The notes: generated by a model from the sequence alone, not told the origin. A DNA stretch of 64,000 nt from Eledone cirrhosa (GCA_964016885.1 OZ024750.1:27218001-27282000), one strand, 5' to 3'. Positions 8,203-46,462 are shown, numbered from the stretch's first letter. Program-made: numbers and translations.

Positions 8203-8337
8203 CATGTCGACATGGAACATTTGGTATCGGTTGTAAAATGTCATGTCTTTGTTCGAACAACTCTTTCTGTGACAAGCAAGAGGGAACATGTTCAGATGGG
8301 TGTAGTGCAGGTTATCTTGGTGACGACTGCCAACTAA
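8203..8337 (+). CDS. Gene 1 EGF-like exon (CRHGTFGIGCKMSCLCSNNSFCDKQEGTCSDGCSAGYLGDDCQL), non-canonical acceptor
   Basis: 135 nt, 8 Cys, phase 1, GT donor at 8338; the acceptor reads tttccg instead of tttcag. Confidence 0.65.
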   Translation, partial: HVDMEHLVSVVKCHVFVRTTLSVTSKREHVQMGVVQVILVTTAN

Positions 8338-8554
8338 GTATTTCCTAAAGATGCTAGGTATTTACTATATATATATATATTGTTATATTTGGGGGAGAGT
8401 CATATTGTTATAATATTATTTAATTTATTTAAATAAATAAAATAAAAATGGCGTAGGAATTACAATACAACGGGAGGAAACATAATAGTACCACTTATGA
8501 TGTCACAGATATGTGACGAAAGAACTTTGATAGACTATATATATATATATATAT

Positions 8555-8940
8555 ATATACGATATTAAACAAATGGAAACTATATTTATAAAACCATATT
8601 TATTTCATTATACATATTTCGGGGATACCATATTAAAAATATGGCATGCCTTCGTCAGATAAAATACAATATATAAACAGTTTTATAAATAATGTTGACG
8701 TACCATAAATATGAGCGACCATTATGTAGGAAGCTGGTTTGGTAGTGGACTACCAAACCAGCTTCCTACATAATGGTCGCTCATATTTATGGTACGTCAA
8801 CATTATTTATAAAACTGTTTATATATTGTATTTTATCTGACGAAGGCATGCCATATTTTTAATATGGTATCCCCGAAATATGTATAATGAAATAAATATG
8901 GTTTTATAAATATAGTTTCCATTTGGTTAATATCGTATAT
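8555..8940. repeat. Near-perfect 386-bp palindrome (192-bp arms, 2-nt loop), Penelope-like terminal repeat
   Basis: Arms mirror about ggtagt-gg-actacc (8741-8754); one mismatch seen. Confidence 0.9.
8829..8894 (+). ncRNA. Minimal type-I hammerhead motif (mirror copy on - strand 8601-8666)
   Basis: tattttat-CTGACGA-stem II-GAAA-tatgt-ATA|atgaaata; 8-bp stem I; base of stem II mismatched. Confidence 0.6.
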
Positions 8941-9259
8941 CTACTCCAAAAACTTGTGGAGTGCTTTATATCTGTTATAAATTATTTACTTGTTGTAACC
9001 CAACAATTTTAAATAAAACTTTTGCATATATATATATATATATATATATATATATATATATATATATATATATATATATGTATATTTAACTGTTGGTCAA
9101 TCAATGATAAACATTGAGTGCCAGATAAATTAACTATGGAGATGTGTCAGTTTGTGGGTTCTGTGTACAAATAAGTGTAACATTAATAAAATAAATGTAA
9201 CAATTAGAATTAAACAAAGGGAAAGCCACAATAGTGTGGAGACGTTCGAGGCCTGCTTG

Positions 9260-44318: not shown

Positions 44319-44988
44319 ATATATATATATATAAATTTATATATATATATATCTATATATATATATATACAGCAGCATCCCAAACCACCAAAATGTTATC
44401 TCGACAGCATAATACATGTGTCCCTATATGTATTTTGCATGTAGGGATATATACTTTATTATTATTAATCTCCCCTGGTCGAGATAACATTTTGGTCGTT
44501 TTGATTGCTGCTATTTTTAGTGGCAGTGGTTTGACCTTTCTGCCTCTGCCTTCTATCTTTGCACACGGCACTGGACAGAATTGCTTCCACATCATTCATT
44601 CTCATCTCGGGAACAATTTTGAATAGCGCCAGTTCGTAATTTGAACTCGGGAATTTTATATTCTCCAAGTGAAAAGAACCTTCTGACGAGAGTTTTTCTT
44701 TTCAATGGATGTCCGTAAGGACTATCCATGTAACTTTGAGACTTTAAACCGTACGGTAAAGGTAACTACAGCAGGTACAGTGAATTTTTTAAAATTTATT
44801 TTAAAACTATTTCTTATTTGCTAAACCTTGAATATATATGTTCTGGCTCGTTAATTTATTAACCTGCCATAGAACCACATTGGCAAATGGTTGGATAATA
44901 CATGTGTCCCTATATGTATTTTGCGTGTAGGCATATATACTTTATATATATATATATATATATATATATATATATATATATATATATA

Positions 44989-45198
44989 TAACGAAGGAAA
45001 TGTGGTAAGGAACCAGGTGGACCATAACGCACCAAAGTACTCAATACTTGAGGTAGTAGAGTGGGTAATAGGAACCAGTAAGACCCCGACAGCTGAGCTC
45101 AAGCCGTTTCGACGGCTAATTCTGGACCGGCTAATTGAGTCCAGAATTAGCCGTCGAAACGGCTTGAGCTCAGCTGTCGGGGTCTTACTGGTTCCTAT
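44989..45198 (-). mobile_element. Fold-back half-hammerhead element
   Basis: Hairpin at ~45068-45198 plus a tail, within (TA)n. Confidence 0.7.
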
Positions 45199-46242
45199 AT
45201 ATATATATATATATATATATAAAACTACATACATATGTACATACATTTACGTATGTGTATAACTATAGATTTATAGATTTGTATATATGCATGCATTTAT
45301 GTTTAAGTGTGTGTATATGTGAGTTGATTTATATTTTTTGGGATAAGGAGAACATTTTGACTCCAGATTTTATTACATAGGGAGATTAACTACAACAGTT
45401 TTTCCTCCTCATCAAACACCAACGCCGGCCTGTATCTGTATACATGCGTGTGTATGTTCGTATGTATGTATAAGTATTTACCCACACCTTTCATCACCAT
45501 TGCTACATTTTCCTGTCATTTCTGTTCATGTTGTTCTTGTAACTGTTGTCATAGTTGAGTAGCCCTTAGTTTCATTTTCTTTGATTTCTTTCGTTTTTTC
45601 TTTTATCTCTCTAAGGAATTCGTTGACAAGCTTCTTTTATTTATTTTCTTCGTTTTCTTCATTCAAATGCGTCCACACTGGTTGTCTCAGAGACGTACAA
45701 ATATGGCTTATAAATGTTCCAAAGTAAAGAGACTTCCAGCGCCCCCAAAGCTTCAAACTCCTACCTAACGGCCCTTGCTCCCTAATGACCCCTTGCTCCG
45801 AAACGCCCCCGAGAGTTCATATGCCCCCTGTTGAGAACCTTTTGGTTTAGACAGATAGCATATTGTATTGTATAATAAAAATCATCGATTTGGCCGAAGA
45901 CCAAACAATTCCAATGGGGATGTAATTGTTTAAAACTAACGCAGGATAAACAGATAATTTGAGCACAATTCAAGGACATATTTTAGGGCGAGCTAGATGT
46001 AAATATATCAAGGTCACAACATGTCATTAAGAAAAGCTCGCTACCGCCTCTGCTAACCAAAACCTTTCGGAAATTAAATAATATCCTAATTATGAAGAAA
46101 CCAAATGTAATATACTATTATAGCTTTTCACTACTACATTAGTCCATCTCAAACCCATCTGGAGATAATTTCCTGTTTAATAACTGTATAATTTACTGGA
46201 GTTGTGGTTTACTAATTGTATTCCTTTTCTGTTGTTGTTTAG

Positions 46243-46462
46243 GATGAGGTTAAACAAAGATTACAGTCATCACGATGATAATAATGAAGACGACGGCATT
46301 GTTAATGATGGCAATAATGTTGATGCTGATGACGATAATGATGATGAGGATAAAGATGAATCCGATAATGATGAATCCGATAATGATGATAATGATGATA
46401 ATGATGATGCCGATAATAATGATAATGTTGATGGCGAAAAAGTTAAACAATTCCAAGGTTAA
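46243..46462 (+). CDS. Probable gene 1 cytoplasmic tail exon, Asp/Asn-rich
   Basis: Branch-like tactaat, pyrimidine tract and tttag acceptor; phase-2 entry (AG+G=Arg) continues in frame as RMRLNKDYSHHDDNNEDD...KQFQG*. Confidence 0.6.

Follow-up and report, generated by a model that had tools for sequence, protein, structure and literature searches.

We report a receptor-like locus in the octopus Eledone cirrhosa, found in a window of 64,000 nucleotides (GCA_964016885.1 OZ024750.1:27218001-27282000), by which we mean the whole stretch of DNA that was analysed. An 8-Cys EGF-like module occurs 15 times in a six-frame motif scan of all 64 kb, each time on the plus strand. The region 8203..46462 holds 14 of them, here called gene 1, followed by a transmembrane (TM) exon and a candidate cytoplasmic-tail exon; the remaining copy belongs to a second gene downstream (Table 1).

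Table 1. Features of the Eledone cirrhosa window (positions counted from its first nucleotide)
Feature	Position	Strand	Remarks
Non-LTR retrotransposon RT ORF	4597..7746	+	1050 codons; inserted in AAT repeat
EGF-like exon N, divergent module	8203..8337	+	CG acceptor, weak donor
EGF-like exon A'	17980..18114	+	diverged A copy, 12/135 nt different
EGF-like exon C	18312..18446	+	diverged B counterpart, 21/135 nt different
2.56-kb tandem repeat	18604..33785	+	five full units and a sixth ending in the hybrid exon
EGF-like exon A, five identical copies	20677..20811 (first); others start at 23244, 25808, 28378, 30942	+	
EGF-like exon B, five identical copies	20994..21128 (first); others start at 23561, 26125, 28695, 31253	+	weak donor, A at -1
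Decayed GIY-YIG retroelement fragment	21861..22675	-	PF01541, E 1.1e-4, above curated cut-off
Hybrid last EGF-like exon	33501..33635	+	A body, B-type last base, B-type downstream intron
Transmembrane exon	42887..42983	+	97 nt, phase 1 to 2, AG/GT, strong donor
Candidate cytoplasmic-tail exon	46243..46462	+	tentative; phase 2, 72 aa with 26 D and 14 N, stop
Signal-peptide exon, second paralog	53768..53831	+	ATG at 53768, phase-1 donor at 53831
First EGF-like exon, second paralog	56031..56165	+	15th module copy

An earlier note on this DNA had described 14 exons of exactly 135 nt in phase 1-1, and all of them are indeed present, open, furnished with eight Cys and closed by a GT donor. Modules of the EGF type are normally encoded by such symmetric exons. 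A profile that we built from these same exons returned 15 sites in the window at E 1e-46 or better and no other below E 2.6, so the set is not due to chance. Five distinct modules occur among the 14 exons, namely N (exon 8203), A', C, A and B. Single exons scored below the Pfam cut-offs, and an AlphaFold2 model of one of them was too poor for use (pLDDT 48.9). The further claim that any subset of the exons would splice in frame stands for the 13 with an AG acceptor and fails for exon 8203, which has CG instead and therefore cannot splice as drawn. That exon is likely either skipped or spliced from an in-frame AG lying 24 nt 5' of it, which would move its start to 8179. We also observed an in-frame ATG at 8139, from which a hydrophobic leader would extend into exon 8203 (8139-8337, plus strand). 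As the tract before exon 56031 is equally open and hydrophobic, this leader is likely a by-product of the T-rich acceptor tract, and more probably chance than a secondary leader arisen after acceptor loss.

The TM exon is the sole plus-strand segment of the whole window to pass both splice and hydrophobicity filters, and the minus strand has none; a search for a protein relative of it gave 12 candidates, none scoring. The candidate tail exon has an acceptor of score 16 and a compatible phase; no frame longer than 40 codons opens earlier on the 3' side of the TM exon, and the first AATAAA past the tail lies at about 47222. A phase-1 TM exon followed by a phase-2 tail exon lacking NPxY is thus found as previously described, and YxxL, ITIM and PDZ motifs are likewise absent from the 72 residues. 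The tail is nevertheless tentative and the weakest part of the model, because it derives from GAT/AAT repeats, which easily stay open in frame, and has no relatives: Pfam gave none and an atlas search only unnamed matches under 0.9. Read-through of the TM donor (42984-43029, plus strand) would replace the tail by a short one of about 15 residues.

A different C-terminus is accordingly one of the readings to be weighed, with the product either secreted and ending in an intron past a weak donor, or membrane-bound with another tail, the D/N tract then being a degenerate microsatellite. Read-through of any EGF donor reaches a stop within 2-3 codons, an Octopus sinensis model named 'protein draper' stops just past an EGF module without a TM helix, the interval from the TM exon to the next gene holds 24 acceptors of similar score, and the missing tail relatives point the same way. 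Set against this are the TM exon, beside which the window has no strong candidate, and the strength, phase and first long frame of the tail acceptor, and we regard a different C-terminus as quite improbable.

Most of the ectodomain is a young tandem repeat. One full unit consists of a long intron, exon A, a 182-nt intron and exon B, and 11 of the 14 EGF-like exons fall inside the array, near-identical and derived from one two-exon block. Near-identical two-exon units that hold whole in-frame exons are the arrangement of coding VNTRs. Units 2-6 differ by 0-6 substitutions per about 2,250-2,560 aligned bases (0-0.27%), while unit 1 differs from the others by 2.3-2.8%, mostly within its first 900 columns. 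The long intron of every unit carries the GIY-YIG retroelement fragment, which we take from its motifs to be Penelope-like and which is missing from the sequence that flanks the last exon on its 3' side.

Could the number of units have been inflated by assembly error? The A copies are 100% identical, as are the B copies, and units U4 and U5 show zero substitutions between them. However, eight substitution sites and a 1-nt indel do vary among the units, several of these diagnostic variants are common to blocks of neighbouring units, CA and TA microsatellite runs are of unequal length from unit to unit, and the array is diverged at its left end and hybrid at its right. The block-shared variants and unequal run lengths argue for real copies grown stepwise, and we judge an assembly artefact slightly more improbable still than a different C-terminus. 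The array was likely grown by unequal crossing-over, of which the hybrid exon 33501 would be the expected product between A and B. Since the units are only 0-0.27% apart, their number is likely to vary between animals.

Public reads aligned to 18650-21157 at 80% likeness came from four of seven runs and consist mostly of genome-wide repeats and paralogs. In run X1, which may be the source sample, the depth of reference letters over this interval is uneven, from 0 to about 57, and gives no copy number. The A-specific letter at 20722 was carried by 5 of 45 reads in RAD-seq run X5 and 0 of 36 in X6, too few to interpret and confounded by allele dropout. Run X1 also holds 23-35 contigs with other letters on exon A; these are fragments and not a gene count, but suggest many paralogous exons in the species. 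Run X4, from another organism, yielded a 212-nt contig that covers exon A together with its flanking sequence and shows 11 differences. A sequencing-run search with 20650-21150 returned RNA runs in none of seven rows, which is uninformative on expression.

Exons 53768 and 56031 mark a second gene in the same orientation. Its signal peptide resembles that of O. bimaculoides XP_014769031.1 only weakly (7/20 identical, E 1.4), and a galactose-binding/FTP domain is absent between the signal peptide and the first EGF-like exon. Gene 1 has no signal-peptide exon anywhere within the 64-kb window, so its model is without a 5' end. Positions 1-1270 and 15950-16450 match 58617-59893 and 63530-64000 in the same order at 4-5% divergence, and these shared intron segments include a composite transposon junction. 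Such a pattern suggests that a tandem segmental duplication produced the two paralogs, in which case the first exons of gene 1 would lie a short way beyond the window's 5' edge, and exon 8203, to which nothing corresponds at the matching place of the second gene, would be symmetric and dispensable. Gene 1 may have a lectin exon further 5' than the window reaches; tblastn of 172 proteins found neither a lectin nor a PTP exon inside it.

The window is rich in mobile and repetitive DNA. Two pieces (1-860 and 58304-59480, minus strand) each join a frameshifted DNA-transposon-like coding fragment to a LINE fragment; this composite is present in both paralogs at 4% divergence, its transposon-like portion (58304-59103) has no Pfam name, and from its motifs it is presumably Sola2-like. 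The RT ORF listed in Table 1 belongs to a near-intact non-LTR element at about 4300-8020 (plus strand), which is accompanied by a 5'-truncated copy at 2623-3419 (plus strand, 97.7% identical), both flanked by AAT, and which we assume from its target preference to be Dong/R4-like. We also noted an element of 1.56 kb at 13635-15191 that ends in inverted repeats of 170 nt (96%), and its counterpart with the inner part inverted at 62522-63153. Long near-perfect palindromes were seen by eye in introns at 8680-8940, 37110-37360, 40081-40403 and 62060-62170, the one at 40081-40403 being found in the self-comparison too. Two decayed copies of a further non-LTR retroelement lie between the genes (47798-48157, minus; about 51400-53450, plus), CRE/SLACS-like as we suppose from their motifs.

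All eight Cys and nine other residues are invariant in the six distinct exons, and the Cys are under purifying selection. When neutral change was simulated, only 1-2% of runs on the A'/A/B trio, and 0 of 20,000 on the six-exon tree, retained every Cys and acquired no stop, and this rarity implies that the exons were coding until recently. Recent substitutions mostly alter the protein: 19 of 20 changes in the trio are non-synonymous (P 0.02-0.08 by simulation), A and B differ by 13 non-synonymous and no synonymous changes, and non-synonymous divergence, when pooled (26/209), is roughly double that of the flanking intron (60/906; Fisher p 0.009), with synonymous divergence equal to that of the intron. 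For the A'-A pair alone, compared with its own intron, the difference is not significant (p 0.18). One-ratio likelihood tests over all codons did not reject omega = 1 (2dlnL 1.4 and 2.1); with Cys codons removed the values were 3.6 and 6.4, on which we do not rely, a fixed parameter being not identified. Gene conversion could bias the substitution counts. These sequence patterns are therefore suggestive only of diversifying selection.

Gene 1 also has to be weighed as a recently decaying paralog in a birth-and-death cluster, its array expanded neutrally during or after loss of function. The lost acceptor at 8203, the LINE that ends about 180 nt 5' of that exon, the weak donors, the want of a 5' exon in the window and the youth of the units, too small in divergence (0-0.27%) to show selection, are all in keeping with decay. 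The donors are weak by score throughout the EGF-like exons, with B-type and hybrid donors below zero; four annotated relatives from Octopus have Lys at 6 of their 20 junctions, which would imply the same weak A(-1) donor class there if exon borders are shared. Arguing for a functional gene, no stop interrupts any of the 14 EGF-like exons, the TM exon or the tail; neutral change would hardly have spared the Cys until A', A and B split; exon 8203, being symmetric, can be skipped without a frameshift; and the shared intron segments suggest that the true first exons lie just beyond the window. We consider decay unlikely, though the most probable of the rival readings.

The exon profile is matched best by proteins of O. 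sinensis and O. vulgaris, which reach 61-68% identity per module and combine EGF modules and a TM helix with a galactose-binding (FTP/F5_8) domain and PTP domains. In O. bimaculoides, XP_014769031.1 couples lectin and EGF domains to a TM helix and a short tail, and lacks PTP. The profile matches 3,212 clusters at E 0.001 or better. A crude classifier sorted 163 retrieved proteins into 36 with PTP, 49 short-tailed, 37 long-tailed, 6 multi-TM and 35 without TM, and found NPxY in 2 of the 49 with TM and short tail. Twenty relatives checked by name come from cephalopods, chitons, gastropods and bivalves, with one lancelet and one unnamed. The suggestion that the receptor type is lineage-specific thus has to be given up, as proteins built from signal peptide, multiple EGF modules, TM and short tail are common across molluscs. 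A module tree (65 rows, 42 columns) unites the five exons of gene 1 at 84/71, unstarred, and leaves deeper forks open; we accordingly claim no orthology. Two O. sinensis phosphatases carry near-identical internal module pairs, which indicates that internal duplication is recurrent in the family. The same module was seen on adhesion-GPCR-type proteins of lancelet and oyster and on a fibrinogen/LRR/TIR model (P0016, P0019, P0003-P0005), as befits a widely shuffled stalk module. A search for literature on the Eledone locus, or on the family in cephalopods, found none, most subscription journals lying beyond its reach.

Among solved structures the profile matched 6U11 (E 6.8e-10), SCARF1/SREC-I (PDB 8HNA, E 1.5e-6) and the EGF region of Tie2 (E 0.009), and the prediction of a MEGF/SCARF-type multi-EGF type-I receptor is borne out to this extent. 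Relative to SCARF1 and Tie2 the predicted Eledone protein has two extra residues in the last loop and a different tail. With MEGF10/11, Draper, CED-1 and PEAR1 it shares a rod of 8-Cys EGF-like repeats on a type-I membrane protein, whereas it differs from them in the molluscan-type G-C spacing before the seventh Cys; an EMI domain was seen neither in the window nor for the second gene, the 5' exons of gene 1 lying outside. Membership of the Draper/MEGF10 group was rejected, the tail candidate being without NPxY or YxxL, and so was membership of the receptor phosphatases, for which the window holds no PTP exon. Octovafibrin, the O. bimaculoides egg-thread protein, was set aside as well; it has many EGF repeats, but they are of the 6-Cys type in a secreted fibre with C-type lectin ends, according to the accessible part of its description (PMC10336842).

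The closest published parallels are gastropod. In the accessible part of PMC13712769, a resistance locus of Biomphalaria glabrata holds clustered 'scavenger class F-like' single-pass receptors, of which LG5R subgroup 1A has a signal peptide, MEGF/SCARF-type repeats, a TM helix and a small domain-less cytosolic part, while the adjoining subgroups 1B and 1C add lectin and PTP domains. Gene 1 resembles 1A in its tandem 8-Cys repeats, single predicted TM helix, domain-less tail candidate and clustered paralogs; the signal peptide is seen here for the second paralog only, the 5' end of gene 1 being outside the window. It differs in its young homogenised two-exon ectodomain repeat, in coming from an octopus and not a snail, and in having no phenotype association. 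SudRes1, as far as its account is accessible (PMC12297450), comprises MEGF/GBD phosphatases with structural rearrangement and EGF-domain loss between haplotypes. Both SudRes1 and the Octopus FTP-EGF-PTP proteins (P0001, P0002, P0029/P0167) are alike to the Eledone locus in module type, with the above identity to the Octopus ones, and in paralog clusters and near-identical internal duplicates, and their EGF number varies by haplotype or paralog, as is likely for Eledone. They are unlike it in that the Eledone window, in which the next gene begins at 53768, is without a galactose-binding/FTP or PTP exon, and that it has one module class and not alternating 43- and 45-residue modules. A multi-EGF gene is induced in resistant snails (PMC13619432, in part), and the causal gene is named in neither PMC13712769 nor PMC12297450 in the parts available.

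For the repeat itself the parallels lie elsewhere. LPA KIV-2, with two exons per unit (PMC11201333), and the SRCR repeats of the pathogen-binding protein DMBT1 (PMC4851238) are, in the accessible parts of these sources, likewise multi-kb near-identical units with whole domain exons that change protein length. Their domains are unrelated, and their copy-number polymorphism was measured where that of Eledone is inferred. The predicted Eledone receptor is built like SCARF/MEGF receptors and probably varies like LPA or DMBT1.

We therefore favour, at a probability of roughly 60%, the reading that gene 1 is a clustered gene for a molluscan MEGF/SCARF-like single-pass receptor, whose ectodomain contains a 2.56-kb two-exon repeat that was likely grown by crossing-over and is likely copy-variable. 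EGF-like repeats of this type have their Cys pairs wholly inside the 45-residue stretch; each exon would thus encode a disulfide-closed module of 45 residues, so that units could be gained, lost or skipped in frame. In the predicted product a signal peptide, encoded beyond the 5' edge of the window, would be followed by about 13-14 modules, one TM helix and an acidic tail without motifs; counted from exon 8203 to the stop, this type-I receptor would be about 735 residues long. A ligand, on cell surfaces or pathogens, would be bound through a Cys-scaffolded rod with fast-changing surface residues, and the A/B array would set reach and avidity and not specificity. With a tail lacking NPxY, ITAM and PTP, the receptor may act as a tether, decoy or co-receptor beside phosphatase-bearing relatives.

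A receptor of Dscam-like or allorecognition type, diversified by combinatorial exon skipping, would put the same exons to another use. The phase compatibility of all exons, their weak donors and the non-synonymous excess would suit it. But 11 of the 14 exons encode just two modules, so that skipping changes length and order and not specificity, and no mutually exclusive clusters are seen; exon skipping thus cannot generate diversity of the Dscam kind. Dscam-type exon choice was likewise rejected on direct comparison, there being no clusters of sequence-diverse alternative exons and five modules among the 14, and we hold such a receptor to be very improbable.

A recognition or immune role for the favoured MEGF/SCARF-like receptor would be in line with its published molluscan relatives, the basis being distant gastropod relatives found by association. 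The stronger proposal is an octopus counterpart of the snail parasite-resistance loci with tens or more fast-diversifying EGF exons. In it a phosphatase-less receptor would adjust reach and avidity by a population-polymorphic two-exon VNTR, have surface residues under diversifying selection and take part in pathogen or self/non-self recognition in cephalopods. This is doubtful, on a par with decay.

Judged on its DNA, gene 1 likely adds to a known, fast-changing family of molluscan receptors an octopus gene that is apparently unannotated and contains a young coding tandem repeat. The surprise is modest, since neither the receptor family nor the layout of the exons nor the coding VNTR as such is new. 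Immune and self-recognition receptors of cephalopods are poorly charted, and short-exon, repeat-rich genes such as this are easily missed by annotation, no annotated protein above 68% module identity having been retrieved. Relatives of the same build lie at Biomphalaria schistosome-resistance loci where EGF number is haplotype-variable, as given in the accessible parts of PMC13712769 and PMC12297450. For such variation the Eledone locus would offer a concrete mechanism, in a two-exon unit, a hybrid crossover exon and block-wise growth, and its two-exon repeat provides a marker that can be typed.
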